Origin: Centroscyllium fabricii
Taxonomy: Eukaryota
DNA length: 64,000 bases
Direction: 5' to 3'
Assembly: GCA_051313645.2 (NCBI GenBank)
Contig: JBNRSN020000003.1
Location: 178,746,001 to 178,810,000 of the forward strand
In this document: positions 12,310 through 58,570 of the stretch, piece by piece
How positions within the stretch are numbered: the stretch's first letter is position 1
Layout of the letters: each line of letters begins with the position of its first letter
The notes under the pieces: model-generated
Seen by the model: the letters and a program-made list of their open reading frames with translations, nothing else
What the model was told of the DNA's origin: nothing
The model's database searches: none
Program-made: the position numbers and the translations under genes

Positions 12310-12447
12310 AAGAAGTCACACAACACCAGCTTATATAGTCCAACAGTTTTATTTGAAATCACAAGCTTTCGGAGCGTTGCTCCTTCGTCAGGTGTTGTGT
12401 GACTTCTTACATTTGTCCACCCCAGTCCAACACCGGCACCTCCACAT
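12310..12447 (+). mobile_element. Penelope-type pLTR insertion (short inverted arm plus tail) with an intact hammerhead motif
   Basis: TSD CATGTTAAAGGT (12298-12309 / 12448-12459). The inverted arm reads CACCTGACGAAGGAGCAACGCTCCGAAAGCTTGTG on the minus strand. Tail TTTGTCCACCCCAGTCCAACACCGGCACCTCCACAT. Confidence 0.75.
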
Positions 12448-12619
12448 CATGTTAAAGGTGCGCGGCTTGTTTCTCGTGTTTCATTACCTCAGGCCAGGTG
12501 GGTTAGATATTAAGAAAGGGTGTTAGAAACAATTTACTGCACTCCTTAAAATAAGGTTTGCTGTGTCTCTTTGTAATATCTCATTTCTGTCAATATTTAT
12601 TTTTGTGTGCCAGTATTTA

Positions 12620-13400
12620 TAATATGTCCACGTATGTATGGCGAGTGTGTCTGTTTGCATTTGTGGATTTGACTGCACGTGCCCCTTGTGTATATGTATA
12701 GAGAATGGCTGTGTGTCTGCTGTGTCTCTGAATGATGCATTAGCTGTGGAGTTTATGTTTGTGCATGCATCGTTTATCATATCTGTGCCCTGTTATGTAT
12801 ATGCATTTTTATTTATGTATATGTATAATTGTGTCTTGGTGCGTCTCTGTCTCTGTGTGGTTTATGATTTGAGTGGAGTATATGTGTCTGGCGTTTCTCT
12901 GTGTGGTGGGTGACTTGTATGGTTTATGTATGTTTGTCTCTTTACGATGTGACTTGGATGCGTTTACATTTCTATGTGGTGCATGTGCGTTTGTACATGT
13001 GTGTATGTTGTGTATTGATGCATGCAAATGCGTTTCTCATATTTCTATGTGTTTTGTTTTGTTTTTTTCTCTACCAATGGGCACATGCTTGTCGCCTTTC
13101 GGTACTTCGTATAAGTGCCTATCCTTCAATGGCACAAAGGACAATCCACCAAGCCAGTGCAGCTGGAAATCAAATCTGGAATTATTCTGGTTTGTATATC
13201 TCGGCTACTCTCAGGTTTAATCAGCAGAGTCATGTGTTATATGTGTGCCTGGTGTGCTCAGTCTGTGTTGTGTGTGTGTTGTGTGTGTGCATCTCTGCAG
13301 TATGTAATCTGTCTGCGGTGTGGTATGTGCGTGCATATGTGGCAAGTGAACTGTATGTAGTATGGTGTTTATCTGACGACAGTCTGTGTGGTTTTTTCCT
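12620..13400. repeat. TG-rich low-complexity tract
   Basis: Degenerate (TG)n/(TATG)n runs that explain the Cys/Val-rich spurious ORFs here. Confidence 0.7.
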
Positions 13401-15082
13401 CTCCGCTATTTGCCCTTGCCCTACGTGCTCCCTCCCCCACCCGATTTGTTAGACAACACATCAAGAGACAATATTTGCAGAGCAAACGTTTGCTGGAGTA
13501 CGGACCAGGCAAGAAGGGCCTGCACAACAATCAATGTTCCCCATATATATACAGATGTAAGTTTGGGGGCAGGGTGTGCGGAGGGTGCACTTGTACTCAA
13601 ATATCATCTCGTGTTCGCAGCGATCGCCGAATGCCAGCTGGTCTTTCGCCGAAGCGCAACCTGCATGCTTCATTCACATTGTACTCTGAACACATTCTGC
13701 AGAGGTCGTCGCCACTGTTTTCGTAATAGCGTCTTTTCGTTGTGTGTGTGTGTGGTTGATAACAATGTTTCTGTTTGGACATGTTGAGCGTGTTTTATTT
13801 TGAGCCCGTGGCAGTGCATTGAGCAGCGATCATTTCCTCATCCTTCCACTGAGCGTTTCTGCTGCAGAAGGCGGCCGAGTGGGGGATGGGTCCAGGCAAA
13901 GCTCTCACAATAACCTCGCCAGCGTCCGGAAAACCACATTAAAATATGTTTAACATTGAGCCATTGGTGTTTTCTGTTAATAAATCATTCTTATTTGTAC
14001 TGATTCATGTAAGTATCTTGCTAAAACAAAACCCTTTGAAGAGGGAATGTCTCACCCATTAAAATGATTTAAAAAATAAAGTTTTAATATGCGTCTAGCC
14101 AATGAATTGCAATCTATGGTGCACATCGTGATTGATTTATTAAAAATAAAGAGCTGGTCAAGGGAGAGCATGCTGATGGGGCACGTTATCATACGTCGTA
14201 AATCAGTTTTTTTCTCTTATCAGATTATAAACACAGACAATAATGATGTGAGGGAAAGGCTTAGGCTCACAGTTTAATTAGGCACAGATCCCTTTGTTGA
14301 CCTGCTTTGTAATACAAAAATAATAGAATAAACCAGAATGTGTAAAACATTCTTATCAGCAGTTTAGTTTTCTCTCCCCCACCCAAAATAAGAATAGATG
14401 CAGTTTACGTAGACTAATAGGTACACAGATTTGCCGATCACTCATTGCAATCATTTTCAAATATTACGTCTATACATGTCGCTTTTAACATCATCCAGTT
14501 TTATGCAACAAAGTACCAGAAATATATGGCCGCGATTTTTTTGTTTGTTTAACTGTTCGCATGCGAGGGAACATAAATCATTCTTAATGGTATTGATTCT
14601 TGAAAGATAGTAGTTTCTTATTTGTCCTTTAATTTATGTCTTCACAGGATAATTTATGTGCCACAAACGTTTTTGTGGCTTTACTTCTGTCGCTGCATGT
14701 GTGTACACAGACGCACACAGATATATCACATATGATGTAAACATAGATTGCAATCATATTATGAAGAGTTATAGAACGTTATAGTACAAAAACATGCCAT
14801 CCCATCCATCAAATCTACACCTGGATTTTACTCCAGATGAGTCACCTAGTATACTCTCAATTTCCATTTGCTCATTCCCCACATCCTTTAATATTAATTT
14901 ATTTCTTAATCAGCTATTTCCCTTAATTTATTAATACTCTTTCAACAATAATTTGTGTCAGACAATTCCACATTAGAACCACCCTCTGTGTAAAGAATTT
15001 AGTTTCTAATCTCCCCTGTAAAGTATCACATTATCGACTCCCATTTGCCTGTCTTCTGGGTTTGAGTGAGCTCCGCAACACC

Positions 15083-15376
15083 TAATAATAATAATAATTC
15101 AACTTTATTGTCATTATACAATGTACAAGTACATGAATAACGAAATGTGATCTTGCAAGCTCCCAGGAGTCCAGCAAAGCCGCTGCGTCTGTGTGCGCCG
15201 CCATTCCATCTTTCCATCATTCTGACAATCTTCAGCCAACCGCCCCTCCCCGGGGCTCCTTTCGTGACCTTCTGCACCTGGTATTCCCTGATGGTCACCC
15301 ATCCAAGTACTAACCAGGCCTGGCTCTGCTTAGCTTCCAAGCCTTAGCCAGTGACCCTGTCCCTAGTCCCAGGAAC
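15083..15376 (-). mobile_element. 5S rRNA-derived SINE (SINE3-like) with Rex1/Babar-type 3' tail, copy 1
   Basis: The minus strand contains GGAAGCTAAGCAGAGCCAGGCCTGGTTAGTACTTGGATGGGTGACCATCAGGGAATACCAGGTGC (5S internal control region) and ends AATGACAATAAAGTTGAA(TTA)n. Confidence 0.8.
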
Positions 15377-15429
15377 CTGCCAGAAGTAAACCTGGAGATC
15401 CTGACTCTCCACCCTCATGAATTCATTGT

Positions 15430-16038
15430 GTAAGAAGTCACACAACACCAGATTATAGTCCAACAATTTTATTTTAAATCACAAGCTTTCCGAGCTTTTG
15501 CCCCTTCGTCGGGTGAAAGAGAGAGACTGACTTAAAGAGCGCACATATGTGATGATGGGAGAAATCCGATATCTCCCACATCTCACCTCAGTAGAGATAG
15601 ACACACAAAGGCTTATTAACATATTTTAAGTGTTTCATTTAAACATAGCATATAGAGAGATAACAATGTGGTCTCTCCAGTTGTTTCACATCACACCTCA
15701 GCTGAGGGACATGATGTCCCTCAGCTGAGGTGTGATGTGAAACAACTGGAGAGACCACATTGTTATCTCTCTCTATATATGTTATGTTTAAATGAAACAC
15801 TTAAAATATGTTAATAAGCCTTTGTGTGTCTATCTCTACTGAGGCGAGATGTGGGAGATATCGGATTTCTCCCATCATCACATATGTGCGTTCTTTAAGT
15901 CAGTCTCTCTCTTTCACCTGACGAAGGGGCAAAAGCGCCGAAAGCTTGTGATTTAAAATAAAACTGTTGGACTATAATCTGGTGTTGTGTGACTTCTTGC
16001 ATTTGTCCACCCCAGTCCAACACCGGCACCTCCACATT
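15430..16038 (+). mobile_element. Penelope-type inverted pLTR pair (~570-bp hairpin) plus 3' tail, with a hammerhead motif in each arm
   Basis: Arms 15430-15712 and 15714-~16000 are near-perfect reverse complements around a single G (GGGACAT-G-ATGTCCC). TSD ATGAATTCATTGT (15417-15429 / 16039-16051). Confidence 0.85.
15914..15951 (+). ncRNA. Minimal type I hammerhead ribozyme motif
   Basis: TCAC-CTGACGA-A-GGGGC-AAAA-GCGCC-GAAA-GC-TT-GTGA shows stem I TCAC/GTGA, the CUGANGA core, stem II, GAAA and a palindromic AAGCTT helix-III region. This copy has one stem II mismatch. Confidence 0.7.
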
Positions 16039-17627
16039 ATGAATTCATTGTACCAGCAAAATGGCTCTGGGGTTTTAGTCTATGAACCAAAGTGTCCAAG
16101 ACAACATAAAATGGCTTCAGGCCCAAATATATTTTTTCCTGATTTATACTCAAATACTGTATTGCATATCTTACAGCAGTTGAAATTCCAAGTTAATGGA
16201 CTCGACTGCGTTCAACAACCAGATTTGTGCACCAGAGGGGTGACTCAGTAATCTGGTGTCCTCAGCGACACTCACATTGAGCGCACCTTGGGAAACAATT
16301 AATTCCTTTGCCACTTTGTCAATTGGTTCAATGTAATTGAAACAAAAATCCCATTCAGTTCTCATAAACAGCTGTTGACTGATGTTACCGGAAATATTTT
16401 TTATTAAACATTACTGTCTTCTGAACCTGTAAATAAAAAAATATATAACTTGTCTTATTTTTATGTATTGCTGCTTTGCATATTAATTTTAAATGTGACA
16501 GTCTATAATAGTGTAATGATTTAGAAAATATGAAGAAAATAATACTTTCCTTTGAGGTTTTTATCATCTTTGTTTTCAATACATTTTCTGTTGTATTTTA
16601 AACATGTTTATTTTTAAAATTCAGTTTAAAATTAATATTTTATTTTGCATTCCTATCTTTCTTGGACTACAGTAGATTCTGGAAAAAGTGGCAATAGGCT
16701 TACTCAAATTTCAGTTTTGAGGAAGATCTTTCACACCCCAAAGCTACATTTACAGGCTCTGAAGCAGTTTGATTTGAAGCCAGCCAGTGTAAATGCTATT
16801 TGAATCGCACATCTCTTCACTGCAGTACAACTCCAACTACATATTAGATTGTAAATGCATATTGCCCGCAAGTGCTGTCTGAACCCGGTGACACACCACA
16901 TGGTGCAATAAACCAGATACTTTTTCTTTCCGTTTCTGCGTTTTCCTTCTCAGTATCAGCATTCAACATGTCCAGTTATACTCTTATGCAACCAAATGCA
17001 GAATAAAGCTGACTTTACTCTGCCCCAATAATGCTTTGACCCAATCATCGAAAATCATCCTCTGCTTTACCCCTGTGAATTTTTAGCAATCATCTTTTAT
17101 GATTTCTCTTGGCATTTTAATGTCAATTTGTCCTGAATTGTGACCAGTTTATATTGTAGAGCTGCCCACTAGAAATCAAGAAGAGAGTGACCAAACTCTA
17201 TTCCCATAGGACCCTTGCTGCTGGCAGGCAGAGATTTGTATCTTACCAATCTGAGCTGGATTTAAATATAGGTTGCAGAGATGGAAAGACATCATGCTAA
17301 CCAACTAAAACACTTATTCTCCACGCACTTGTAAAGCTACAGGAGGAACAACAACTTGTACTGATATCGTGCCTTTCATGTGACAAACATTCCAAGGCAT
17401 TTTACAGGAGATCAAGGGATACTAAGCAGGAAATGGGAGAGCAATTAGGGGAGGTGACTGACAGAAGATATGGTTGAAGAGGTATGTTTTGAGGAGGCTT
17501 TTGAAATGGGGAGGTTTAGGAAGAGAGTTCCAGAATGCAGGGCGTGGTCCCTGGAGACACTGGCACTGATAGTAGAGGGAGGAGAGGACATACCATTGAT
17601 GAGTCAGAAGAACAGAGGATGCATAAT

Positions 17628-17962: not shown

Positions 17963-20122
17963 GACGTCGAGAATGACGTCATCAGGCCGCGCGGTGCTTG
18001 GCAGGCGCAATTGGGCAGCACCCACCGTTTTGCCCCTGGGCATTGCCCATGCCAGCTTTCCCCGGCCGAACCAGCAGCGCTCGAACGCTGCTTAAATGGA
18101 AGTGCGACGGTCGACCATTTTTATTGCTGGCTGACCGCCAGCAGCTTCCCCCTCAGCCTCTCCCGGCCTCCCCTGCTGCTCCCCTGGCAGGGTGAGGCCT
18201 CCATCAACTGAGCCCGGCACTTCCCCTGACTGCCGGGCTCGTTCTCCGCTTCCCGGTCCCTCGGCGGCCCCGCGGGGCTCTGGCCGCAGCCACGCTAGGC
18301 CCCTCCCCTTTAATGGGGGAGGAAGCCTGCCTTTCAATTCAATTCCATTTTTTATTGTCATTGCAGTATAATAGTACAATACAATGAAACGCAGACTCGC
18401 CGCTCCCGAGAGTAGTGCAAATAAGTTACCTAGCATGGGTTGCATACAAAAAAGTGCATTTCAAGTGTTTTTTTCAAATGGAGTTTTTTTGTTAGAGTTC
18501 AGGAGGCTGACAGCCCTGGGGAAGAAGCTGTTCTTAAATCTAGTCGTGCGGGTGCGAATTGATCTGTAGCGTCTCCCGGAGGGCAGGGGGGCGAACAGAC
18601 TATGGCTGGGGTGTGTGGGGTCTTTAATAATGTTCAGAGACCTCCATAGGCAGCGTTTCAGGTAGGTGCTTTCAATTGATGGTAGCTGGGTGCCGGTGAT
18701 TCGTTGGGCAGTTTTGACTACCCGCTGCAGGGCCTTCCGGTCCAAGATGGTGCAGTTTCCATACCAGACTGTGATGCAGCTTGTCAGTATGCTTTCGATT
18801 GTGCAGCGGTAGAAGTTGCTGAGGATGCCGGCTGTCAGCTTGGCTTTTTTGAGCTTCCTTAGGAAGTACAGGCGCCGTTGGGCCTTCTTGATCAGAGAGG
18901 AGGTATTTAGTGACCAGGAGAGGTCTTCCGAGATGTGGACCCCGAGGAACTTGAAGCTGGACACCCTTTCCACCTCAGCCCCTTCGATGAAGATGGGGGG
19001 GTGTCTTCCGCCTTTAGTCTTCCGGAAGGCCACCATGATCTCCTTGGTTTTCTTGGTGTTTAGTGCCAGATTGTTGTCGGCACACCATCCCACAAGGCAC
19101 TGAATCTCATCCCTGTAGGCTGACTCATCGCTGTTGGTGATCTGGCCAACCACCGTGGTGTTGTCCGCAAACTTGATGATCTTGTTGGAGAAGTGAACAG
19201 CCACACAGTCGTGGGTAAAGAGGGAATAGAGGAGGGGGCTCAGCACACAGCCTTGTGGGGCCCCTGTGTTCAGGGTAAGGGGGGGTGGGGAGGTGAGGTT
19301 GCCTAACTTCACAGACTGGTCTGTTGGTTAGGAAGTCCAGGGTCCAGTTGCAGAGGGAGGTGTTCAGGCCAAGGGTGAGGAGTTTGGTCGACAACTTGCT
19401 GGGGACGATAGTGTTGAATGCTGAGCTGTAGTCTATGAACAGCATTCTGATATAGGTTTCTTTGCTATCCAGGTGGTTTAGTGCAGAGTGAAGAGCCGTT
19501 GTGATTGCATCTTCCGTTGATCTGTTTCCTCTATAGGCGAACTGGCATTGGTCGAGGGCGGCGGGGACGCTGGCTTTGATGTGGGCCAGGACCAGCCACT
19601 CAAAACACTTCATGATTATGGGTGTGAGTGCGACAGGGCGGTAGTCGTTCAGGCACGTCACAGCCATTTTCTTGGGCACAGGGATGATGGTGGCGGTCTT
19701 GAAGCAGGTAGGGACAGCTGCCTTAGCCAGTGACAGGTTGAAGATGTCGGTGAAGACCTCAGCCAGTTGGTCGGCACAGTCTTTGAGTGCCCGGCCAGGG
19801 ATGCCGTCAGGACCCGCGGCCTTCCGTGCGTTCACTCCACGTAGAGCACCTCTTACGTCGGAGGAGGACAGTATTAGTAAGTGGTCGTCCGGAGATGGCG
19901 AGACTTTGGTGCGGGCTGCCGCTGCGGCCTCACTCACGCAGCGCTGCCCCAACACATGGATATTCGGCCGCCTCGCACCAAAAGCGAGGCGGCCCACCCG
20001 ATTCACCGCCCACCCCCCATAATGGGCGATGTGGGCCAATATCGGCATTTTTAGTGCCAGTGAAAAATAGCGCATTGCCCGGGTCAGCTCCACAAAATGT
20101 GTGCTGACCAATTTCTCCCCCA
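17963..20122. repeat. GC-rich interspersed repeat (ending AATTTCTCCCCC) split by the Rex1 insertion
   Basis: GC-rich non-coding blocks at 17963-18332 and ~19920-20122 flank the LINE. The terminus resembles those of the GC-rich TIR elements at 48.5, 51.8 and 59.8 kb. Confidence 0.4.
18333..19920 (-). mobile_element. Rex1/Babar-clade LINE, 5'-truncated, RT frameshifted near 19315
   Basis: [61 protein letters not shown](N)TT, PSGRRYRSIRTRTTRFKNSFFPRA; tail AATGACAATAAA..(TTGAA)n. Confidence 0.9.
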
Positions 20123-20224
20123 TAATACTGGGGAGAGGGAATTCCAAGGATAGATAGCATGATTTAGAGCAGGATAAAATGGGCATCAATGTTCTGGATG
20201 AGTTGCCGATTAAGTACGGTAGAA

Positions 20225-20485
20225 TTTGGGAACCTAGTGAGGAAAATCAAGCCTTGAAATGATGAAGGCATGGATGAGTGCTTCAGTGGAGGTGGACATG
20301 CAATGGGGATGAAGGCAGATGATATTTTGCAGATCTAAGTCTACAGTCTTGATAAGAGACTGGATGTGAGGTTTTAAGCTCTGCTCGTGGTCGAGCAGGA
20401 TTTCAAGGTTGTGCACTATCAGGTTCAGCCTGAGAAGCAATCCGGGAGGAGGAATGGAATCAATGACTAAGGAGTCAAACATGAT
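20225..20485 (-). mobile_element. L2 LINE fragment
   Basis: [35 protein letters not shown] is an L2 ORF2 C-terminal motif. Confidence 0.65.
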
Positions 20486-20956: not shown

Positions 20957-22935
20957 TTCTCTCTCTCTCTCTCTTAGGCAGTCCCTTGGAACCGAGGATG
21001 ACTTGCTTCCACATTAAAAATGAGTTTGCAGGTGACTGATGAGTCCAATGTGGGGCCTACAGTCTCTGTCACAGGTGGGGCAGACGGTGGTTAAAGGGGC
21101 GAGTGGGTGTTTTTTTTGGGTTGATCTGTGCTCCTTGTACTGCCTGCGCTTGGCTTCCGCTTGCTCCCGACGAAGAGACTCGAGGTGTTCGGCGCCTTCC
21201 CAGATGCTTCAAGTTCAAGTTCAATTTTATTGTCACATGTACTAAATACAATCTAGACAGCAAAATGTTTACTGCGATCCGAACGCACTGCGCAACAACC
21301 GCGCAACAAGGACATTAAGCTGCCCAGCAAGCACGGAGCCCGCAAGACGTCAGCCATTCTCCTGCGCCATCATCGTGGGTCCCATTCCTGCTCCGGCTAC
21401 TCAGTTTGGTGTTAATTGTCCTCTACCGCTCCATTAACCTGTTCTGCTGCTGTTTCTTCCGTTGTTTCTCATGACTTGACTCCTTTCGGCCCGACACCAT
21501 GCCGGCTCCCCCGAATCCATGGAGCTCCGAACTCCAGGAGCAGCGTCCTAAGGCCTGAGGCCTAGCTCTCTTCCAGACGCTTCTCCATTTTGTGTGGTCT
21601 TGGGCCAGAGATTCCCAGGTGTTGGTGGGGATGTTACACTTTTGCAAGGAGGCTTTGAGGGTGTCTTTGAAGCATTTCCTCTCCCCACCTGGGGCTCTCT
21701 TGCTATGCTGGAGCTCCAAGTAGAGCACTTGTTTTGGGAGTCTCGTATTGGGCATGCGGACAATGTGACCCCTCCATCTGAGCTGATTGAGCGTGGTCAA
21801 AGATTCGATGCTGGGGATGTTGGCCTGAGCAAGAACACTGACGTTGGTGCGCCTATCCTGCCAATGGATTTGCAAGAGCTTGCGGAGGCAGCATTGGTGA
21901 TACCTCTCCAGTACTTTGAGGTGCCCGCTGCACATGGTCCATGTCTCTGAGGCATACAGCAGGGCGGGTATCACTGCTGCTCTGTAGACCATGAACTTCG
22001 TGCCAGGTTTGAGGTTCTGGTCTTCAAACACTCTGTTCCTCAGGTGACCGAAGGCTGCACTGGCACACTGAAGGCAGTGTTGGACTTTGTCTCCTACGTC
22101 TGCCCTTGTTGACAGTAGGCTCCCAAGGTATGGAAAGTGGTCCATGTTATCCAAGGTCTTGTTGTGGATTTTGATAATTGGGGGCAGTAATGTGTGGCGG
22201 GGGCAGGTTGATAGAGGAACTTTGTCTTACAGATGTTTAGTGTAAGGCCTATGCTCTCCTACGCTTCGGTGAAGGTGTTGAGGATGGTTTGGAGTTTGAC
22301 CTCCAAGTGAGCGCAGACGCAAGCGTCATCTGCATTCTGTAATTCGACGACAGAGGATGGGATGACCTTGGATCTGGACTGGAGACAACGGAGGTTGAAC
22401 AGTTTGTCGTTTGTTCTGTAAATTAGCTGCACTCCAGCGGGGAGCTAACTGAGGGTGAGATGGAGCATTGCAGCAAGAAAGATCGAGAAGAGCGTTGGTG
22501 GGATGACACAGCCTTGCTTGACCCCGGTTCAAACGTGAATTGGGTCTGTGGTGGAACCGTTGGTTAGGATCACGGCTTGTATGTCATCGTTGAGCAGGTG
22601 GAGGATAGTGACAAACTTTTGAGGGAAGCCGAATTTGAGGAGGAAACTCCATAATCCCTCACGGTTGACAGTGGCGAAGGCCTTTGTGAGATCAAAGAAG
22701 GCCATGTACAGCAGTTGGTGCTGTTCCCTGCATTTCTCTTGGAATTGATGTGCAGTGAGGATCATGTCCATTGTGCCTCTGAGTGGGCAGAATCCGCATT
22801 GTGACTCTGGGAGGAGCTCTTCGGTCACTGGGAGAAAGTGATTGAGGAGGATTCTTGCGATGACTTTCCCTGTGGCAGACAGCAGGGAAACTCATCTGTA
22901 ATTACCGCAATCGGATTTGTCACCTTTCTTGAATA
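20957..22935 (-). mobile_element. RTE-clade LINE (degenerate RT and 3' end), interrupted at 21209-21555
   Basis: LLPESQCGF..GTMDMI..EKCREQHQLLYMAFFDLTKAF, FPYLGSLLS, LYASETWT, RLPKQVLY; (GA)n tail. Confidence 0.85.
21209..21555 (-). mobile_element. Non-coding retroposon with Rex1-type tail inserted in the RTE
   Basis: Tail ..TAGTACATGTGACAATAAAATTG(AACTTG)n; the body resembles 47797-~48200. Confidence 0.55.
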
Positions 22936-23244: not shown

Positions 23245-24060
23245 GACAGTCCCTCGGAACCGAGGATCACTTGCTTCCACATTAAAAATGAGTTTGCAAG
23301 TGACTGATGATGTAATGGGTGTAGGTTGGGCCCAAATGCAATACACCGAAACAGCAGATGTAGAAGTATACTTTATTTATGAGCAGTAGAAGACACTGGT
23401 AACAGTGGGTCAATATATAGGCAGAAAGTTCACGGAGGCAACAAGTCCAAAACAGAGGTCAGGCAGAAGAGAATTCAAATACCAAAAACAGATCCATTCC
23501 GGGTAGTCAGTCCACGAAAGCAACAAATCCAAATGGGGTCAGGCAGAAGAGAATCCAAATTCCAAAAACAGATCAATACCGGGTAGTCAGTCCACGAAAG
23601 CGACAAGTCCAAATGGGGTCAGGCAGAAGAGAGTCCACAGTCAAGAAAGTAGGTCAGTATCTTGAACAGGCAGGATCAGAGAGCTAAGAACAAACACAGG
23701 TTACCTCAGTCAGAAAGCACAAAAACAATCTGGCAACCAATGGGTAGAAAACAGGGGTTTAAATACAGCTCCTGATTGTCACTGGTGACTCTGGACTGTT
23801 AAATCATGTGCGAGCAGTAGAGCTAACAAGGTGGTTGCCAAGCAGAGCTAATAAGGTAGTTGCCAGTTAAAGAGGAAGAGCCAACCTATGACAGATGAGT
23901 CCAATGCGGGACCTATAGTCGCTGTCACAGGTGGGGCAGACGGTGGTTAAAGGGATGGGTGGGTGGGGTGCTTGGGTTGACGTGCGCTCCTTGCGCTTGG
24001 CTTCCGCTTGCTCCAGGTGAAGAGACTCAAGGTGTTCGGCGCCTTCCCGGATGCTTCTCC
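23245..24060 (-). mobile_element. RTE 3' end fragment carrying a solo LTR
   Basis: The sequence matches 20975-21205 (CAGTCCC..GGAACCGAGGAT..ACTTGCTTCCACATTAAAAATGAG; CPTC..RSRIGL) and is split at GATGA. Confidence 0.8.
23311..23893 (-). mobile_element. Solo LTR related to the chromovirus LTRs at 40801 and 45825
   Basis: TGTAA..TGACA ends, 5-bp TSD GATGA, shared segments GTAGGTTGGGCCCAAATGCAATACACCGAAA and CCAACCTATGACA, internal ~78-bp tandem repeats. Confidence 0.9.
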
Positions 24061-29700: not shown

Positions 29701-31234
29701 GCGGTGAACGTGCGGTTTGTTAGGGCAGGGAACTCTGCCAGGAGCGTGCCGTAGGCATCGGAGTCCCTGGAGCGGCATTGGGCTGCCGCGTGGGCCAGGA
29801 GTGCGGGCCCTGTGGAGCATGGGATGGTCGTCATGGTGTTTATATTTACCAAGCGGCGCCGAGTTACATCGACCAGTAGGCTGTAGGCGCAGAGGAAGTC
29901 TGCCCCGAGGAGGGGAGAAGTGACCTGGGCCGTTACAAAATCCCAGGTGTACGCGTGGCTTGCAAGGGTTATGGTTAGCTTGCGGGTGCCGTACGTTTTT
30001 ATATTAGAGCCGTTGGCTGCCGCTAGTGGCGGGCCCCGGATACCTCGTTTGGTTTCTGCAGGGGAGGCTGGCACGATGCTGTGCTGCGCGCCTGTGTCGC
30101 AGAGGAACCTGAGGCCTGTACCGCTGTCTGTGGCAAAGAGCAGTGCTCCTGTGTGGCCTACAGACATGGTGGGGGATGAGTTGGGCCGTGGCTTGAACGC
30201 GCATGGCTGGACGCAGAGGTGCGCTTTGTGTTCGAACCGCGTGTGGTAATAGCACCAGCCGGTGCTAGAGGGACGCGGTTGTCTGGGTGGGCGCGGGGCC
30301 CTGGGTTCAGGCGTAAAGTTGTGCCTGGGGGGTGATTGGCTGCGCTCTACCGATGCGGAGTTAGGGTCGCACGTGGTTGAGCGGGTGCGCTGCGCCTCCA
30401 TGAGCCTGTCGGCCTCCTCTCCGAGCTCGTCATCGGTCCGGTGGCCAAGGGCCGCCAAGGCCGGTTTGATGGCGCGGGGCAGTTTAAGGAGGAAGACAGT
30501 GCGGAAGAGGGAGGCTGAGTTGGGTGTAAGCGCTTGCAACTGACCTAAGAGGTCCGATGGGTCTGCGTCCCCGAGTTCAGGGAGGTCGAGGAGTTGGCAG
30601 TCGCGCTCAAATTGGGAGGGGGTAAATTTTTTGATTATCGCGGCCTTAAGCGTTTCATACCTGCCTGCGCTGGGCACGCGCTGTATTTTTGACCACATCC
30701 GATCAATCGTCGTCTGTGGTAGGGCTGTGAACACCAGGTCGTAGCGGTCGTCCCCGTGGATGCCATGTGTGCGGCAGCTGGCCTCGATACAGATGAACCA
30801 GGCCGCTGGCCGTTGCTCCCAGAACTCGGGTAGAGTCAATCCACGTCCGGCGTTCTGTCCAGCTCCCTGCTTTCGTGGAGCTTGGTTTCTTGGGTTTACC
30901 GTGTTCTCTGATAAAAGTCTTTGTCTGGTGGTTCCAGATCCCGCGGCAGCTTTTCTTCTCTGGAAGTCGTTCCAGTTCGGGGTCACCACTGTAGCACCGG
31001 CAGGCCTAGGAACCACACGTGAGCCAGAGCTAGAGAGAACACAGCTTTAATCAACTAGTACAAAACAAGAAAGAGAGTGAACCACTCGAGACAGGCATAT
31101 TTAAACGGTCCCGCGGTTGGTGACGTCATCGCGTCGGCCGACGTGATGACGTCGTCGTGTCACCCGGATGAGTGGGGCTTTGCTCCGCAGAGTCCCCATG
31201 GCGGATTTGATGTCCCAGTGGGCGTACCGCCACA
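26788..31234 (-). mobile_element. Full-length Gypsy LTR retrotransposon (4.45 kb) with tRNA-Trp PBS
   Basis: 245-bp LTRs at 26788-27032 and 30990-31234 (TG..CA, about 10 differences), TSD ATAT, PBS TGGTGACCCCGA, PPT GGGGGGAG. Confidence 0.95.
27075..30990 (-). pseudogene. Gypsy gag-pol polyprotein with one premature stop at 27348
   Basis: LPEFW gag, CYYH..HLC, LCDTGA protease, YLDD RT, TDAS RNase [21 protein letters not shown] integrase. The frame continues past TGA into PYDGPY..IDRLKPAH. Confidence 0.9.
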
Positions 31235-32299: not shown

Positions 32300-32404
32300 C
32301 TCCGAAAGCTTGTGATTTCAAATAAAACTGTTGGACTATAACCTGGTGTTGTGTGACTTCTTACAATTGTCCACCCCAGTCCAACACCGGCACCTCCGCA
32401 TCAT
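32300..32404 (+). mobile_element. Penelope-type pLTR 3' fragment plus tail
   Basis: CTCCGAAAGCTTGTGATTTCAAATAAAACTGTTGGACTATAACCTGGTGTTGTGTGAC..CACCTCCGCATCATG. Confidence 0.75.
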
Positions 32405-32480
32405 GATATAACCAAAGATGGCTAGGAAAACAAACACCCTACTTGAAGTGTCTTTAATTTACATGTTGTAAATATGATAC

Positions 32481-46679: not shown

Positions 46680-46969
46680 TAATAATAATAATAATAATAA
46701 TAAAACCTTATTGTCATTATACAATGTACAAGTACATGAACAACGAAATGTGATCTTGCAAGCTCCCAAGAGTCCAGCAAAGCCGCTGTGTCTGTGCGCG
46801 CCGCCATTCCATCTTTCCATCATTCCGACAATCTTCAGCCAACCGCCCCTCCCCTGGGTTCTTTTCATGACCTTCTGCACCTGGTATTCCCCCATCCAAG
46901 TACTAACCAGGCCTGGCTCTGCTTAGCTTCCAAACCTTAGCCAGTGACCCTGTCCCTAGTCCCAGGAAC
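46680..46969 (-). mobile_element. 5S rRNA-derived SINE with Rex1-type tail, copy 2
   Basis: Closely similar to 15083-15376 with the same 5' end GTTCCTGGGACTAGGG; 10-bp deletion directly after GGATGGG. Confidence 0.8.
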
Positions 46970-47276: not shown

Positions 47277-47620
47277 CATAATGTGGAGGTGCCGGTGTTG
47301 GACTGGGGTGGACAAATGCAAGAAGTCACACAACACCAGATTATAGTCCAACAGTTTTATTTTAAATCACAAGCTTTCGGAGCTTTTGCCCCTTCGTCAG
47401 GTGAAAGAGAGAGACTGACTTAAAGAACGCACATATGTGATGATGGGAGAAATCCGATATCTCCCACATCTCACCTCAGCAGAGATAGACACACGAAGGC
47501 TTATTAACATATTTTAAGTGTTTCATTTATACATAGCATATATAGAGAGAGATAACAATGTGGTCTCTCCAGCTGTTTCACATCTCAGCTGAGGGACATC
47601 AAAGCAATCAAAGGTGTTCC
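47277..47620 (-). mobile_element. Penelope-type pLTR plus tail, single arm, intact hammerhead motif (~47367-47404)
   Basis: Same sequence as the 15.4-16.0 kb arms. The minus strand reads TCACCTGACGAAGGGGCAAAAGCTCCGAAAGCTTGTGA. Confidence 0.8.
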
Positions 47621-49261: not shown

Positions 49262-51094
49262 GAAGAGTCTACGACAATCCTGGGAGGTTAGCACACCTAC
49301 CTGTGCCTGCTTTGCTGATGGTGCTATCTGACTCTCCTTGCACTCAATCGCTAACACAGACGCTGATGCCAGTTTATCCATTTATCCACGTCTTTGAGCC
49401 AAATACGGTTACGGAATAAAAACATATATATTATGATTGGTGCTTAGGCAAGCCTGAGGTTTCCGGACTCTCTCGGCTCTGCAGATTGGGTCTTGCAGCA
49501 ACTCAGGTTGCGCCTTTAACACAAATCCAGTTGCACCTTTGATGCAGAGGCAGTTTGCATTTGTAATATCCTCCAGATATAATAATGCAGCTAACTGATC
49601 TTCGCCGAATGACTTCATTGAGAAAATATCAAAATCATTTCATTCTGGATGGTTGTTTTGAATAAATAACATTCAAAAAAGTTATGCATTTCTTTGTAAT
49701 TTTAATTAGAATAAGAACTACACAACACAAGAATTTAACCCAAAGAGAAATTTAAGATTAATTGATAATGGGTATAATCTTGTCCAAAAACTGAGTGCAT
49801 ATAAAACCTGTCAAGACTTGTCAGATCACATGAAGAGCAACCGCTGTGTAAAATTTACCCTCAAGTGCTCCATTTTTGCTCACCAGACTGTGGTTAATGC
49901 TTGTTTTGTCCTGACTCTAGGTTTATTAATTGCTCATTTTTTTAATTGAGATAAATGGTACAGTACATCCAGTTTTAACAACTTTCCATACATCAGTAGT
50001 TTTACAAACGTCTTCTTGAATCCCCTGATTATTTCTCTAGTCAAAAACTATTCTGATATTTATACTTAATAGGACACATCTGCAAGTTAGTTCCCATTTT
50101 GTGGTTGGAGCAGTAGAGAATAATTAAATTATTATATATGTGAATACTTATAAAGTATAAGTAGTTTGTCGCTTAAATCTGGGATTCTCCCCTAGAGCTC
50201 TGACATTTCATGCATCATTGAAGTCTGATTTTATCCCACTCCACCATGCTTTTTATATTAATATGGCAATAACTTTGTTTTATACACTTCCAAAAAACGA
50301 GAAAAAAATATTCGACGCAGATACAGTAGTCATAGTTCATGAAGGGGTACTGTTATTATAAAATCATAAACTCAGCAACTTCTTATGAATTTTTGATAAG
50401 CATTGAGCTTAAAGGACCTAATTAACTTTGAAAATGCATCACCTTCAGGAGAAAAACAATTCTGTTTGTTTCTAAACTTGATGCAATTATGTAAATTATA
50501 TTGAAAACATTAAAGGTGATTCTCCCTCCATATAAAATCTCCGACCCACATTTGTGGCCACCCCCATGACATTATAGATCATCTCCTGTGGCTTCTCAAT
50601 TCAATCAAGGCTATTTCCAACCATTCCCATATATATCACCACGCAGACCCCACAATCTGACTTCAATCCCACTTCTTTCAGCACCACCCTATGGAAACAA
50701 CTCATCTTCAGTTACTTACAACTGCACTTTCAAACTCCCAACTAGAAACATAGAAACATAGAAGACAGGAGCAGGAGTAGGCTATTCGGCCCCTCGAGCC
50801 TGCTCCGCCATTCAATGTGATCATGGCTGATCATTCAAATTAAGTACCCTGTCCCTGCTTTCTCCCCATACCCCTTGATCCCTTTAGCCTTAAGAAATAT
50901 AGCCAACTCCTTCTTGAGTATATTTAATGAATTGGCTTCCACTGCCTTCTGTGGCAGAGAATTCCACAGGTTCACCACTCTCTGGGTGAAGAAATTCCTC
51001 CTCATCTCAGTCCTAAATGGCTTACCGCTTATCTTTATACTGTGACCCCTGGTTCTGGACACACCCACCATTGGGAACATCCTTCCTGCATCTA

Positions 51095-51193
51095 TGCCAA
51101 AAAGTCACACAACACCAGGTTTAAAGTCCAACCTGGTGTTGTGTGACTTTTTGCATTTGTCCACCCCAGTCCAACACCGGCACCTCCGCATTA
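51095..51193 (+). mobile_element. Very short Penelope-type inverted pLTR plus tail
   Basis: Hairpin AAAAAGTCACACAACACCAGGTT..AACCTGGTGTTGTGTGACTTTTT followed by the tail; TSD TTCCTGCATCTA. Confidence 0.75.
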
Positions 51194-51798
51194 TTCCTGC
51201 ATCTAGTCTGTCCAGTCCTGTTAGAATTTTATAAGTTTCAATGAGATCCCCTCTCGTTCTTCTATACTCCGGTGAGTACAAGCCCAATCGACCCAATCTC
51301 TCCTCATACGTCATTCCTGCCATCCCAGGTATCAGCCTGCTGAATCTTCATTGTACTTCTTCCATGGCAAGATCATCCTTCTTCAGATAAGGCAAACAAA
51401 ACTGCACACAATACTCAAGCTGTGGTCTCACAGGCCCTGTACAACTGCAGCAAAACATCCTTGTTCCTGTACTCAAACCCTCTCGCTACGAAGGCCAGCA
51501 TACCATTTGCCTTCTTGACCGCCTGCTGCACCTGCATGCTTACCTTCAGTGACTGGTGCACAAGGACGCCAGGTCTCGTTGCACTTCCTCTTCTCCCAAT
51601 CTATTCCCATTCAGATAATAATCTGCCTTCTTGTTTTTGCCACCAAAGTGGATAACCTCGCATTTATCCAAGTTATATTGCATATGCCATGCTTCTGCCC
51701 AATCACCCGACTTGTCCAAATCATACTGAAGTTTCTCGGCATCCTCCTTACAGCACACATGCCCACCCAGCTTTGTATCATCTGCAAACTTGGAGATA

Positions 51799-52565
51799 TT
51801 GGCCCAGAAATTCAGGTTGGAGGCTTGCCGCGTGTGCAAGCCTCCAACCTGCACTTACCTTGCACGCCGGCCGTCGAGCTGTGGGCCCGGCTCGAATTCC
51901 GATCCGGGGCCTGCTTCAACTGCCGGCGCGCTGTGCTCGCGCATTGCAGCGGCACAGATAGTGTGATGGGCCCTCTGGGATCACGTGGGCCATGGAGAGC
52001 CAATCGGAGCAGTGAATGTTCTATTCATAAGTTTGACAGGAAGAGCTGTGAAAACTATGAAAACTACAAGCACCAAAACATCACTGAAACATCAAATACA
52101 TTTTTTTTTAAATCACATTTTTTAAATTACTATAAATTACATTAAATAACAATTTTAAACAATAATTTTAATTTTTGAAATATTTTATTATTTTTCCTAA
52201 TGGGGTTAAAAATAAACTTACCTTTCTTTAAAGTTTTTAAAAATAATAAACCTGTGGAAATTTTTTTTTAATTTGAATTAATTCAGCATTTACCTTGTTA
52301 AAAGCAGGCCTTATGGCTTGCTTTTTTCGTTTCTAACTTTTTCTTACTTACCCGGACAGAAAATCCTGTAAAAAAAGCGCAAGTGCAATGCGTATATGCT
52401 GCCGCTCCCACGCACGTGTGTCACTTCATAACCCCTTAGTTCGGGGAACGGACGTGCTGGTTTCCCGCGCATGCGCAGTGCATGCAGGAAACTGGCACTT
52501 TGCAATGGCCTACGGGTGAGTACTCCGCCCATACTCATGCGTTCAGAGGTCAATTTCTGGGCCAA
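51799..52565. mobile_element. MITE with perfect 14-bp TIRs and TA TSD
   Basis: TA-TTGGCCCAGAAATT ... AATTTCTGGGCCAA-TA interrupts the CR1. GC-rich arms surround an AT-rich core. Confidence 0.8.
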
Positions 52566-53042
52566 TACATCTAGTTCCCTCGTCCAGATCATTAATATAT
52601 ATTGTGAATAGCTGGGTCCCAAGGACCGATCCCTGCGGTACTCCACTAGTCACTGCCTGCCGCTCGGAAATAGCGTCGTTTATTCCAACTCTTTGCTTTC
52701 GGTCTGCAAACCAGTTCTCTATCCAAGTCAATACCTTACCCCCAATCCAATGTGCCTTAATTTTACGCTAATCTGTTATGTGGGACCTTATCGAAGGCCT
52801 TTTGAAAGTCGAAGTACACCACATCCACTGGTTCTCCCTTATCTATTCTATCAGTTACATCGTCAAAAAATTCCAGTAGATTAGTCAAGCACAATTTACC
52901 TTTTGTTATTCCATGTTGACTTTGTCCGATCCGGCCACTGTTTTCCAAGTACTCTGCTATTACACCTTTTATAGTGGACTCCAGCATTTTCCCCACTACC
53001 GATGTCAGGCTTACCAGTCTGTAATTTCCCGTTTTCACTCTA

Positions 53043-53396
53043 CAGGTTGAGCTTTGTTAATCCGGTATGGTCGGGCCAGCACTGTGCCAAATTTGTGAAA
53101 TCGCTGAATGATTGAAGCTTTGGCGGCACATGCGCAGACCATTCAAAATGGCCACCGTGAAATTTTGAATGGTCTGCGCATGCATTCGCCGAAGCATCAA
53201 TCGTTCAGGGAGGCCCGGGCATGCGCAGCCAAGTGCGGCGGCCATGTTGCGCATGCACAGACCAGTCGGGGAGGCCCGGGCATGTGCAGCCATGCGCGGT
53301 GGCCATTTTGCGCATGCGCAGGGCAGTCGGGGAAATCTTTGCCGGACGTCTGAAGCTGCCGGTTTTTCGGGTGCCGGATTAACGGTGCCCAACCTG
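53043..53396. mobile_element. Tigger/pogo-like MITE
   Basis: TA-CAGGTTG..TTAATCCGG ... CCGGATTAA..CAACCTG-TA, inserted in the CR1. Confidence 0.75.
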
Positions 53397-54142
53397 TACC
53401 ACCTCTTTTGAACAGAGTGGTAACATTAGCTACCCTCCAATCCATGGGTACTATTCCAGAGTCTATTGAATTTTGGAAGATGACCAGCAATGCATCCACT
53501 ATTTCTAGGGCCACTTTCTTAAGTATCCTAGGATGTAGATTATCAGGCCCTGGGGATTTATCAGCCTTCAATCCCGTCAATGTTTCTAACACTATTTCCC
53601 TACAAATACTAATTTCAATCAATTCCTTCCTTTCATTAGACCCCATGTTCCCCGACATCTCGTAGAATCATAGAATCCCTACAGTGCAGACAGAGGCCAT
53701 TTTGGCCCATCAAGCCTGCACTGACACATATCCCACCCTATCCCCATAACCCCAATCTCTGGGAGGTTGTTTGTGTCCTCCATTGTGAAGGCAGAACCAA
53801 TGTATGTATTTAAATGGTCTGCCATTTCGTTGTTCTGCATTATAAATTCCCCTGATTCTGACTGCAATGGACCTATGCTTGACTTCACCAATCTTTTTCT
53901 CTTCACATATCTATAAAAGCTTTTACAGTCAGTTTTTATGTTCCCTGCAAGCTTACTCTCATACTCTATTTCCCCCCTCTTAATTAATCCCTTTGTCCTC
54001 CTTTGTTGAATCCTATGTAACCTTTGGGCCTCCTTTGCCATTATAACTCTGCAGCTGAGATTGTTCAACCACTCACTCACCTCTTAAAGCTTTGTCCCCA
54101 GCAAAACCTTCACTATCACCCATCCCTGTCATTTCCTCAGGT

Positions 54143-54395: not shown

Positions 54396-55209
54396 TATGG
54401 TACCAACTTCCATTCCCTCAAGTCCAAGGGGTACAAACTTGAGTGTACCTAACAAATAACTAGCTTAGCCATCCATCACCAGGACTGTCTGGACTATATC
54501 AAGCTCTACTGGGCCACACTTTCCTCTACCTAAACTATCTCGTACTTCAGGATCATCATGGAAGGCAAAGATAATCCCAGGCTCATTTCCTCTACTACTT
54601 CGACTGCTTCCTTAAACCCCTCATCTTTGCCTCTCTGTCCTCACCTTTAAAACAAATGTGAAAAGCTGATGGAATTTTTCATCAGCACGATTGAGAGCAT
54701 TTGTTCAGCTGCCTCTGCTGCCATCCAATTCCTTGCCCCCCCAAGTCAACCCCTCCAGCTCCCTCCTGCTCTAGCCCTGAACATCAGTATAGTTTCTGCC
54801 CAATCTCCACCTGTCCTGTCCCATCTCTAGTTCCTTTGGTTCCATTCCCACTGAACTCCTGACCACTCAACTTCTGTTCCTAGCTCCCATGCTAGCTCAA
54901 TGTAAATGGTTCTCTCTCATCAGGCACTGTCTCCTTCCATTTCAAAATCCTTGACCCCTCTGTCCTTGATAACTACTGCTCCATCTGAGTGTTGTGTAAT
55001 GAGGGAGGACTAATTAGCAATCTTGTGGTGAGAGACCCCTTGGGGAAGAGTGACCATAGTATGGTGGAGTTCTACATTAGGATGGAGAAGGAAACAGCTG
55101 ATTCAGAGACCATGGTCCAAAACTTAAATAAGGGCAACTTTGAAGGCATGAGGCGTGAATTGGCTAGGTTAGATAGGCAAACGATATTTAACAATGGCAG
55201 ACATTTGGA

Positions 55210-55342
55210 CATAATGTGGAGGTGCCGGTGTTGGACTGGGGTGGACAAATGCAAGAAGTCACACAATACCAGATTATAGTCCAACGGTTTTATTTTAAAT
55301 CACAAGCTTTCGGAGCTTCTGCCCCTTCGTCAGGTGAAAGAG
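55210..55342 (-). mobile_element. Penelope-type pLTR fragment plus tail, intact hammerhead motif
   Basis: TSD AGACATTTGGA. The minus strand reads TCACCTGACGAAGGGGCAGAAGCTCCGAAAGCTTGTGA. Confidence 0.8.
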
Positions 55343-55458
55343 AGACATTTGGAGATCACATGGATGAACTGCAACAATTGTACATCGCTGTCTGGCGTAA
55401 AAATAAAAAAGGGAAGGTGGCTCAACCATGGCTAACAAGGGAAATCAGGGATAGTATT

Positions 55459-55687: not shown

Positions 55688-57021
55688 GTATTAAAGCCAA
55701 GGAAGTGGCATACAAATTGACCAGAAGTAGCAGCAAACCCGGGGACTGGGAGAAATTTAAAACTCAGTAGAGGAGGACGAAGGGTTTGATTAAGGCAGGG
55801 AAAATAGAATATGAAAGGAAGCTTGCAGAGAACATTAAAGCTGACTGCAAAAGCTTCTATAGATATGTAAAGAGAAAGAGGTTAGTAAAAACAAACGTAG
55901 GTCCCCTGCAGTCAGAATCAGGGGAAGTCATAATGGGGAACAAAGAAATGGCAGATCAATTGAACAAGTACTTTGGTTCGGTATTTACTAATGAGGACAC
56001 AAACAACCTTCCGGACATAAAAGGGGTCAGAGGGCCTAGTAAAAAGGAGGAGCGGAGGGAAATCCTTATTAGTCGGGAAAATGTGTTGGGGAAATTGATG
56101 GGACTGAAGGCTGATAAATCCCCAGGGCCTGATGGTCTGCATCCCAGAGTACTTAAAGAGGTGGCCTTGGAAATAGTGGATGCATTGACGATCATTTTCC
56201 AACATTCCATAGACTCTGGATCAGTTCCGATGGAGTGGAGGGTGGCTAATGTAACCCCACTTTTTAAAAAAGGAGTGAGGGAGAAAACGGAATTACAGAC
56301 CGGTCAGCCTGACATCAGTAGTGGGCAAAATGATGGAATCAATTATTAAGGATGTCATAGCAGACCATTTGGAAAGTGGTGACATGATAGGTCCAAGTCA
56401 GCATGGATTTGTGAAAGGGAAATCATGCTTGACAAATCTTCTGGAATTTTTTGAGGATGTTTCCAATAGAATAGACAAGGGAGAACCAGTGGATGTGGTG
56501 TACTTAGACTTTCAGAAGGCTTTTGACAAGGTCTCACACAAGAGATTGGTGTGCAAAGTTAAAGCACATGGGATTGGGGGTAATGTGTTGACGTGGATTG
56601 AGAACTGGTTGGCACACAGGAAACCAAGAGTAGGAGTAAATGGGTACTTTTCAGAATGGCAGGCAGTGACCAGTGGGGTACCGCAAGTTTCGGTGCTGGG
56701 GCCCCAGCTGTTTACATTATATATTAATGATTTGGACGAAGGGATTAAATGCTGTATCTCTAAATTTGTGGATTACACTAAATTGGGAGGCAGTGTGAGC
56801 TGTGAGGAGGATGCTAAGAGGCTACAGAGTGACTTGGACAGGTTAGGTGAATGGGCAAATATATGGCAGATGAAGTACAATGTGGATAAATGTGAGGTTA
56901 TCCACTTTGGTGGTAAAAATAGAAAGACAGGCTATTATCTGAATGATGACAGATTAGGGAAAGGGGAGGTGCAACGAGACCTGGGTGTCATGGTACATCA
57001 GTCACTGAAGGTGGAAATGCA

Positions 57022-57952
57022 GATGACACTAAGCTGGGAGGGCGTGTGTGCTGCAAGGACGATACCAGGAAGCTCCAGGATGATTTAGACAGGTTGGGCG
57101 AGTGGGCCGAGACATGGCAGATGCAGTATAATGTGGATAAATGCGAGGTTATCCACTTTGGGGGCAAAAACAGAAATGCCGACTATTATCTGAATGGCAA
57201 TAGATTGGGAGAAGGGGAAGCACAACGAGACCTGGGTGTTCTTGTGCACCAGTCACTGAAGGTGAGCATGCAGGTGCAGCAGGCGGTTAAGAAGGCAAAT
57301 AGTATGTTAGCCTTCATAGCAAAAGGGTTTGAGTACAGGAACAGGGAGGTCTTGCTGCAGTTGTACAGGGCCTTGGTGAGACCACACCTTGAGTACTGTG
57401 TGCAATTTTGGTCTCCTTATCTAAGGAAGGACGTTCTTGCCATGGAGGGAGTGCAGAGAAGATTCACCAGGCTGATACCTGGGATGGCAGGATTGATGTA
57501 TGAGGAGAGATTGGGTAGACTGGGTTTGTACTCTCTGTAGTTTAGAAGATTGAGAGGGGATCTCATCGAAACGTATAAAATTCTAACTGGTCTGGACAAA
57601 CTTGTTGCAGGAAGAATGTTCCTGATGGTTGGAGAGTCCAGAACCAGGGGTCATAGTCTAATGATAAGGGGTAACTCATTTAGGACAGAGATGAGGAGGA
57701 ATTTCTTCACCCAGAGAGTGGTGAACCTGTGGAATTCTCTGCCACAGAGGGCGGTGGAGGCTAGTTCATTGAATATATTCAAGAAGGAGCTGGATGTATT
57801 TCTTAATGCTGGAGGGATCAAGGGATATGGGGAGAAGGCAGGGACAGGGTACTGAGTTTGGATGATCAGCCATGATCTCATTGAATGGCGGAGCAGGCTC
57901 GAGGGGCCGAATGGCCTACTCCTGCTCCTATCTTCTATGTTTCTATGTTTCT
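57022..57952 (+). mobile_element. Second, 5'-truncated CR1 inserted inside the first CR1
   Basis: The host reads ..GGAAATGCAG | GTACAGCAGGCAG... The insert restarts at ADDTKLG and ends with its own (TTTCTATG)n tail. Confidence 0.85.
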
Positions 57953-58460
57953 AGGTACAGCAGGCAGTTAAGAAAGCAAATGGCATTTTGGCCTACATAG
58001 CGAGGGGATTTGAGTACAGGAGTAGGGAGGTGTTGCTACAGTTGTACAGGGCCTTGGTGAGGCCACACTTGGAGTATTGTGTGCAGTTTTGGTCTCCTAA
58101 CTTGAGGAAGGACATTCTTGCTATTGAGGGAGTGCAGCGAAGGTTTACTAGATTGATTCCCGGGATGGCCGGACTGACATATCAAGAAAGACTGGATCAA
58201 CTGAACTTGTACTCTCCGGAGTTCAGAAGAATGAGGGGGGGTCTCATAGAAACGTTTAAAATACTGACGGGTTTAGACAGGTTAGATGCGGGCAGAATGT
58301 TCCCATTGTTGGGGAAGTCCAGAACCAGGGGTCACAGACTAAGGATAAGGGGTAAGCCATTTAGGACCGACATGAGGAGAAACTTCTTCACCCAGAGAGT
58401 GGTGAACCAGTGTAATTCTCTACCACAGAATGTTGTTGAGGCCAATTCACTAAATATATT

Positions 58461-58570
58461 CTTCGGATCAATTTAACTTCACTTTGCCTGAGGAAGGAGC
58501 AGCGCTCCAAAAGCTTGTGATTTAAAATAAAACTGTTGGACTATAACCTGGTGTTGTGTGACTTCTTACA
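58461..58570 (+). mobile_element. Penelope-type pLTR fragment, tail-less, with a mutated hammerhead core
   Basis: CCTGAGGAAGGAGCAGCGCTCCAAAAGCTTGTG (GAAA changed to AAAA); short repeat ATATTC at both junctions. Confidence 0.7.

Follow-up and report, generated by a model that had tools for sequence, protein, structure and literature searches.

Seven short insertions of a hammerhead-bearing repeat in Centroscyllium fabricii, probable retrocopies of the end of a Penelope-like retrotransposon

Introduction

Minimal type I hammerhead ribozymes have been described in Penelope-like elements (PLEs); they number thousands per genome in several vertebrates (PMC4209133) and their function is still unclear (PMC8557442). 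They are recognised by an extra base after A9 (between positions 9 and 10.1), a G10.1-C11.1 pair and a palindromic 15.2-16.2 helix III, and the activity of such minimal motifs is reported to be low and helper-dependent (PMC4209133). Here, a stretch of 64,000 nucleotides from Centroscyllium fabricii (assembly GCA_051313645.2, contig JBNRSN020000003.1, positions 178,746,001 to 178,810,000 of the forward strand; the whole stretch is called the window) was analysed. It carries seven insertions of one short hammerhead-bearing repeat, and these are probably short retrocopies of the pseudo-long-terminal-repeat (pLTR) of a Penelope-like retrotransposon of a cartilaginous fish.

The insertions of PLEs are marked by 5' truncation, inverted pLTRs and a 30-40 bp tail at one end (PMC8557442), the tail lying between two start sites of reverse transcriptase (RT) (PMC11167929, PMC8557442). 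In rotifer Penelope the pLTRs are inverted head-to-head, with junction palindromes, duplications of 8-10 bp, a one-ended tail and solo pLTRs (PMC3846280). The protein of PAc, a Poseidon element of Anolis, both nicks and extends the two target strands in vitro, RT starting at two internal RNA sites which bound the tail; unprocessed RNA is the main template and the hammerhead cuts only when the protein is present (PMC11167929). Type I hammerheads are also found in the non-LTR retrozymes (LTR, long terminal repeat), which are defined by head-to-tail units, at least two, and by circular RNA (PMC7229834; bioRxiv 10.64898/2026.07.22.740005), and which have been reported in one chondrichthyan (bioRxiv 10.64898/2026.07.22.740005).

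Results

The hammerhead motif and its cleavage site

A full descriptor of the minimal type I hammerhead was run on the window, with 200 dinucleotide shuffles of it as the control. The strict descriptor gave three matches (12391, 47400 and 55333, all on the minus strand) and none in any shuffle; when one stem II mismatch was tolerated there were four, compared with a shuffle mean of 0.025. It is clear from the strict matches that the hammerhead motif itself is real. The loose core CTGANGA..GAAA is not enriched in the window (11 matches as against an expected 6.2; as many are reached in 6 of 100 shuffles). An Rfam scan of the window at E<=10 did not detect the motif; it returned 14 weak matches, a hammerhead among none of them, and those to microRNA families at 15670-15756 were set aside as a mere reflection of the palindrome at 15 kb.

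The motif consists of a stem I 5' arm TCAC, C3-A9 as CTGACGA, one extra A and a stem II of 5 bp, followed by G12 A13 A14 A15.1, G15.2 C16.2, U16.1, U17 and a stem I 3' arm GTGA, the positions being those of the standard hammerhead numbering. The extra A is present in all six near-complete copies, G10.1-C11.1 in five of the six and G15.2-C16.2 in 7/7. The core CUGANGA...GAAA...UH with stems I and II is intact in the copies at 12359(-), 47367(-) and 55300(-) only, the other three of the six near-complete copies having changes which break it. A sequence-only reading of the window that preceded this analysis had located the motif at seven places; the coordinates of all seven are correct, as are its four stem II loop sequences and the self-complementary AAGCTT which it gave for helix III. 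Its consensus fits half of the near-complete copies (3/6), but the remainder deviate through the breaking changes. Furthermore, its assignment of the copies to the PLE-type minimal type I hammerhead, with helix III cut down to a palindrome, agrees with the consensus of the main text and Fig. S3 of PMC4209133.

By the standard numbering, cleavage is predicted after GAAAGCUU, as the sequence-only reading had it. Cleavage at a U17 site is probably slower. The description of the UU site as unusual was wrong; it is an ordinary one, since U17 is found in 24 of the 56 rows of Fig. S3 of PMC4209133 (C in 25, A in 6 and G in 1, tallied by eye from machine-read PDF text) and since the painted turtle row there has the identical GCUU end, which is shared also by the Philodina PLE row. 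The cleavage triplet, CUU, obeys the NUH rule for hammerheads (PMC3884650); the literature searched on this point gave no rate of cleavage at CUU.

One repeat in seven insertions

The copies had been taken for a ribozyme family in its own right, which is not borne out: they sit within one longer repeat of up to 325 nt, which was mapped by BLAST and nhmmer as ten arms in seven insertions (Table 1). The tailed arm of insertion 1 and both arms of insertion 5 are without a ribozyme and had been overlooked.

Table 1. Insertions of the repeat, their flanking duplications and the hammerhead motifs, in window positions
Feature	Position	Strand	Description
Insertion 1	12310..12451		Two inverted arms that meet in a short common word: 12310-12394(-), untailed, and 12388-12451(+), tailed
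Target-site duplication of insertion 1	12298-12309 and 12448-12459		12 bp
Insertion 2	15430..16041		Head-to-head palindrome of 612 bp, centre G 15713; arms 15430-15712(-), untailed, and 15713-16041(+), tailed
Target-site duplication of insertion 2	15417-15429 and 16039-16051		13 bp
Insertion 3	32300..32405	+	5'-truncated inside stem II; 3' end tailed; target-site duplication not found
Insertion 4	47277..47601	-	325-nt unit; ~195 nt upstream of ribozyme; tailed 3' end finishing in ATG; 5' edge as in insertion 2; target-site duplication not found
Insertion 5	51095..51194		Without ribozyme; arms 51098-51132(-), untailed, and 51130-51194(+), tailed; interrupts CR1-like LINE; missed earlier
Target-site duplication of insertion 5	51083-51094 and 51194-51205		12 bp
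Insertion 6	55210..55345	-	Truncated ~8 nt upstream of ribozyme; 3' end tailed
Target-site duplication of insertion 6	55199-55209 and 55343-55353		11 bp
Insertion 7	58462..58569	+	25 nt of unknown origin, then broken hammerhead, then untailed end
Duplication of insertion 7	58456-58461 and 58570-58575		6 bp; CR1-like LINE split cleanly
Hammerhead in insertion 1	12359..12394	-	Core intact; stem I of just 3 bp; stem II of 5 bp in A-U form with 3-nt loop; predicted cut 12363/12362
Hammerhead in insertion 2	15479..15516	-	Broken: U4>C, C11.1>G
Hammerhead in insertion 2	15914..15951	+	Core intact; G.G mismatch in stem II (3' arm GCGCC)
Partial motif in insertion 3	32300	+	3' part alone, from position 23 of 38; begins inside stem II
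Hammerhead in insertion 4	47367..47404	-	Intact minimal form; G.U form, AAAA loop; predicted cut 47371/47370
Hammerhead in insertion 6	55300..55337	-	Intact minimal form; G.U form, AGAA loop; predicted cut 55304/55303
Hammerhead in insertion 7	58487..58520	+	Broken: G12>A, stem I 5' arm lost

Duplications of 11-13 bp flank four of the seven insertions, one of 6 bp flanks a fifth and none was found at the other two. Among random junction pairs a duplication of at least 11 bp arises in 0.07% of 3000 trials; the 6-bp duplication at 58 kb, expected by chance in 13%, is weak alone. At both 51 kb and 58 kb excision of the insert restores a CR1-like long interspersed nuclear element (LINE).

When unit position 1 is set at the start of stem I, the 3' ends of the arms fall into two classes about 40 nt apart. 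Six of the ten lie at positions 126-128, at or shortly before an ATG, and four at 85-88; the interval between them is referred to as the tail, which is thus optional, and the two classes as tailed and untailed. In three of the seven insertions the two arms are inverted head-to-head, with a tailed end facing outward on one side and an untailed end on the other; at 12 kb and 51 kb these arms are joined through 3-4 common bases. The predicted cut site is crossed by seven arms, is not reached by three and is the start point of none. Since no arm begins there, it was uncut RNA that was copied. Four 5' edges lie near the ribozyme (-7, +2, +4 and +23), a clustering which, to judge from these positions, may be caused by stalling of RT at the ribozyme.

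The 5' edge of insertion 4, about 195 nt upstream of the ribozyme, recurs to within 1-2 nt in the two arms of insertion 2, whose flanks are different; the edge is thus shared by two independent insertions. Segmental duplication between the 15 kb and 47 kb loci was considered and rejected, the repeat and a short interspersed nuclear element (SINE) being their only common parts, in separate pieces. The two arms of insertion 2 differ from one another at one family-variable position, a weak hint that two templates may have been used.

Two further observations concern the surroundings of these insertions. The 25 nt at the 5' junction of insertion 7 (58462-58486) are probably a template switch or filler; those next to the core re-form stem I to the extent of four pairs, of which two are G.U. 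The two SINE-like copies, at 15083-15376 (-) and 46686-46969 (-), represent a 295-nt element that has an (ATT)n tail and contains a partial 5S rRNA segment; they are 92% identical. Each adjoins a long ribozyme-bearing insertion (at ~50 and ~310 bp) on the same side, with unrelated sequence between; the post hoc chance of this proximity is about 1 in 200 to 1 in 2000.

Variation and decay of the copies

The sequence-only reading had described variation in stem II as preserving pairing, and this is not upheld. In the six-row alignment none of the nine pairs is altered on both sides. The sole change tolerated in stem II is one-sided, giving G.U in three rows, A-U in two and no pair in one, and it is this G.U/A-U position that divides the copies into two subfamilies; two stem II changes which break pairing, omitted earlier, are also present. 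Nor are the structural positions poorer in private substitutions, which occupy 4 of 197 cells there and 18 of 1194 in the remaining repeat (Fisher p=0.54; unit positions 84-92, the short-end junction, left out of the count). Six rows are too few and too alike for a test of compensatory change across a family. The copies are 88-98% identical to the reference copy, hence young, and their decay is even. The ribozyme copies here are passive and are decaying neutrally as dead copies; the sample is small, and the statement bears on these copies and not on selection in source elements.

Surrounding sequence

The window is transposon-dense vertebrate DNA with four LTR-retrotransposon blocks, which carry RT, RNase H and integrase or gag domains, and several LINE fragments. 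No self-repeats are seen in its first 8 kb, whereas at the far end repeat density is as high as 46%. An exon at ~7.9-8.8 kb (7830-8879, minus strand) resembles the first coding exon of a ZNF608-like gene, its nearest atlas cluster being 'zinc finger protein 608-like' (score 0.95). The open reading frames (ORFs) of the LTR blocks (26788-31234, 32481-34083, 35597-40544 and 40801-46124) are all on the minus strand. Long ORFs are present in three of the blocks (1232 aa, 1388 aa and, with a chromodomain, 342+1232 aa), which must be young, since their LTR stretches are 96-100% identical; that at 32.5-34.1 kb has a gag-like ORF only. LINE ORF fragments with RVT_1, one of them also with ALKBH8_N, lie at 18464-20246 (-) and 21426-22891 (-). 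Minus-strand elements, LINE fragments and LTR blocks together, thus run from 18 to 46 kb, a bias that could reflect a region like a cluster of PIWI-interacting RNAs or selection near a host gene.

An 80-bp tandem repeat of 2.6 copies at 23427-23637 is related to the LTR at 40801-41100 and is probably an older solo LTR of that family. Related CR1-like LINE copies at 50742-54009 (-) and 55764-59625 (+) are in opposite orientation, with arms 75-90% complementary, and CR1-like 3' ends recur at ~57950, 58750 and 59620. For the CR1-type RT at 56279-57085 the best named relatives belong to a stingray, Hypanus sabinus (72% identity), and to the elephant shark Callorhinchus milii (69%), with turtles and birds at 47-61%, an order which points to a cartilaginous fish as the probable host. 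A GC-rich hairpin and a 61-bp repeat (53109-53333), which are inserted in a CR1-like fragment, are possibly a small non-autonomous DNA element.

Discussion

Likeness to Penelope-like elements

The copies share with the PLE hammerheads of PMC4209133 the CUGANGA core with its extra base, G10.1-C11.1, GAAA, a loopless palindromic helix III of two bases and a short stem I; in Fig. S3 the Poseidon motif of the lamprey has a stem I identical to the one here. Common to both are also U-rich upstream and AU-rich downstream flanks, a prevalence of single truncated copies and the occurrence of pairs on opposite strands 100-700 bp apart. They differ in that none of the 56 rows of Fig. S3 is from a cartilaginous fish, that the 5-bp stem II is at the short end of the range and that no ORF is attached in the window. 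From Penelope of Adineta vaga and Drosophila virilis are familiar the head-to-head inverted terminal repeats, junction palindromes, one-ended tail, target-site duplications and solo pLTRs (PMC3846280, PMC2377424, PMC8557442); the duplications here reach 11-13 bp, in contrast to 8-10 bp in the rotifer (PMC3846280), and insertion 2 differs in being an entire 612-bp palindrome whose arms abut. With PAc the repeat has in common two 3' end classes, which correspond to two RT start sites, and a ribozyme copied uncut. However, in PAc the ORF begins within stem II and RT starts ~111-118 nt into it (PMC11167929), whereas the tailed end here stops at an ATG ~90 nt after the ribozyme which may be a start codon. 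As far as its sequence can be compared, the repeat behaves as a PLE end on every feature tested; formal membership would need a direct link to a PLE ORF, and none was found in the searches given below.

The two end classes, the inversions and the fact that arms cross the cut site or stop before it but never start there would follow from a mechanism of the PAc type, from which we infer the following scheme by transfer. The GIY-YIG endonuclease of the element would nick both target strands, ~6-13 bp apart, and RT would begin at one of two internal RNA sites ~40 nt apart and read through the uncut ribozyme, usually dropping off within 25-135 nt. Priming of both strands, one per start site, would give a head-to-head inversion with one end tailed and the other untailed, and an RT that reached the 5' end of the RNA would produce the unit of 325 nt. 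The hammerhead of the source element would cleave a tandem precursor RNA after GAAAGCUU, weakly, and solely as a dimer or with the element's protein. Another route to inversions is fold-back self-priming, which is favoured in PMC3846280.

Several results weigh against a PLE origin of the copies, or at least fail to bear it out. The tail, at ~40 nt, is as long as the longest published ones, a duplication is missing at 32 kb and 47 kb, and the combination of one tailed and one untailed end in all three inversions would arise by itself with a chance of ~11%. In nearest-neighbour folding, where tertiary, Mg2+ and protein effects are omitted, the best monomer fold of the intact 38-mers does consist of stems I and II; yet the active double hammerhead is at -19.9 kcal/mol as compared to -22.4 for two monomers and -22.5 with A14-U17 pairing, and within the 325-nt unit the probability of stem I is 0.004, so that the ribozyme fold is rare there. 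The 3' stem-loop and the upstream region fold little better than shuffles (z -0.57 and -1.81). On these energies, and by comparison with other minimal motifs of PLEs, any activity of the motif is likely to be low and helper-dependent.

The same holds for the search for coding capacity and relatives. As the sequence-only reading had noted, there is no Penelope ORF in the window: a GIY-YIG domain was found by Pfam in none of 289 frames, which comprise 284 of the 302 frames of at least 55 aa outside the LTR-element blocks (the other 18 overlap the ZNF608-like exon or the LINE ORF at 18.5-20.2 kb) and the 5 main ORFs of 138 inside them. The 195 nt upstream of the ribozyme have no open frame of at least 55 aa, and so give no evidence of an ORF end there. 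The translated tail had no match at E<=0.001 among 1.84 billion representatives and no candidate among longer proteins, negatives which are weak since the query is of 30-40 aa and may never be translated. No DNA relative was found in prokaryote-centred collections of phages and plasmids, nor, for a 25-mer, in the genomes of bacteria and archaea; the 76 loci matched by an 18-mer were dismissed as chance, since none of them extends beyond 29 nt or matches other parts of the window. Chondrichthyan Penelope families are included in repeat databases (Repbase, Dfam). In the literature, to which the search was confined, the present family was not found described, though the supplements of bioRxiv 10.64898/2026.07.22.740005 may include it.

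Other explanations

The 325-nt unit might be a SINE-like non-autonomous element that has source genes of its own, starts at a fixed 5' end, borrows a PLE enzyme and keeps pLTR signals only; the common start of insertion 4 and both arms of insertion 2 between different flanks suits this, as do the lack of any copy which extends to an ORF and the ability of PLE pLTRs to act in trans (PMC3846280). We consider it unlikely. A fixed 5' edge is equally expected from a full PLE, where a solo unit of fixed length would result because transcription begins inside the pLTR (PMC2377424) and RT starts internally near the ORF start (PMC11167929), and the edge is seen in just two independent insertions. There is a small but real chance that a more specific version is correct, in which a PLE-dependent element of ~325 nt in cartilaginous fish would run from a fixed, probably capped, start through the minimal hammerhead to the tail. 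Priming of the two target strands would always use different RNA start sites, a tailed one and an untailed one; where both copies reached the RNA 5' end they would be fused into a perfect 600-bp palindrome, and the lone G at their common 5' edge would be a copied cap.

That the copies are monomers of a non-LTR retrozyme, spreading by self-cleaved circular RNA, is improbable, and the description of them as retrozyme-like units did not hold. The 325-nt unit does lie within the animal size range of 170-400 nt (PMC7229834) and near the average of 363 bp in the one chondrichthyan tested, and pLTRs are the proposed origin of retrozymes (bioRxiv 10.64898/2026.07.22.740005); like those of animals the copies are non-coding, ~300 nt long, with a type I hammerhead and probable PLE ancestry (PMC7229834; bioRxiv 10.64898/2026.07.22.740005). 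But retrozymes form head-to-tail arrays which make circular RNA, whereas the copies here are dispersed, truncated or inverted. There is no motif-bearing tandem array in the window, where the nearest intact pair on the same strand is 7.9 kb apart, and since none is in tandem there the copies are very probably not retrozymes. No arm of the ten starts or ends at the cleavage site, circular permutation is not seen, the two fixed 3' ends and the inversions are marks of PLE insertion, and the motif is of the minimal type while classical retrozymes bear canonical type I motifs (PMC7229834). It is more improbable still that the host retains some of the copies, whether as regulatory ribozymes or as a hairpin source of small interfering RNA for the neighbouring ZNF608-like gene. 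All three intact motifs are on the minus strand, that of the exon, and the 612-bp palindrome would fold as a long hairpin; however, three on one strand are expected one time in four, and the copies are young and evenly decaying in a region whose transcription is without evidence. We can hardly credit that the hammerhead likeness is due to chance, inside some other repeat which was never a ribozyme. The copies are not independent, so that a single origin is all that needs explaining, no hammerhead was matched by Rfam and covariation among the copies is lacking; against this stand the absence of descriptor matches in 200 shuffles of the 64 kb, the position-by-position fit to the published PLE consensus and the PLE-type ends of the repeat.

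Meaning

The repeat end is thus most likely an ordinary leftover of a known kind of element, a Penelope-like retrotransposon, and it adds a probable case from a cartilaginous fish to the PLE hammerheads. Seven insertions in 64 kb imply that the family is very large. Its main value is mechanistic: with clean duplications, two fixed 3' ends and inversions, it could show genome-wide whether the two strands are primed at different RNA sites. If the copies do derive from a PLE-dependent element of ~325 nt, then the insertions would record the in vivo working of the Penelope RT dimer. Finally, genome-wide counts of the ends could show whether self-cleaved RNA is ever copied, which bears on the role of the hammerheads of Penelope-like elements.

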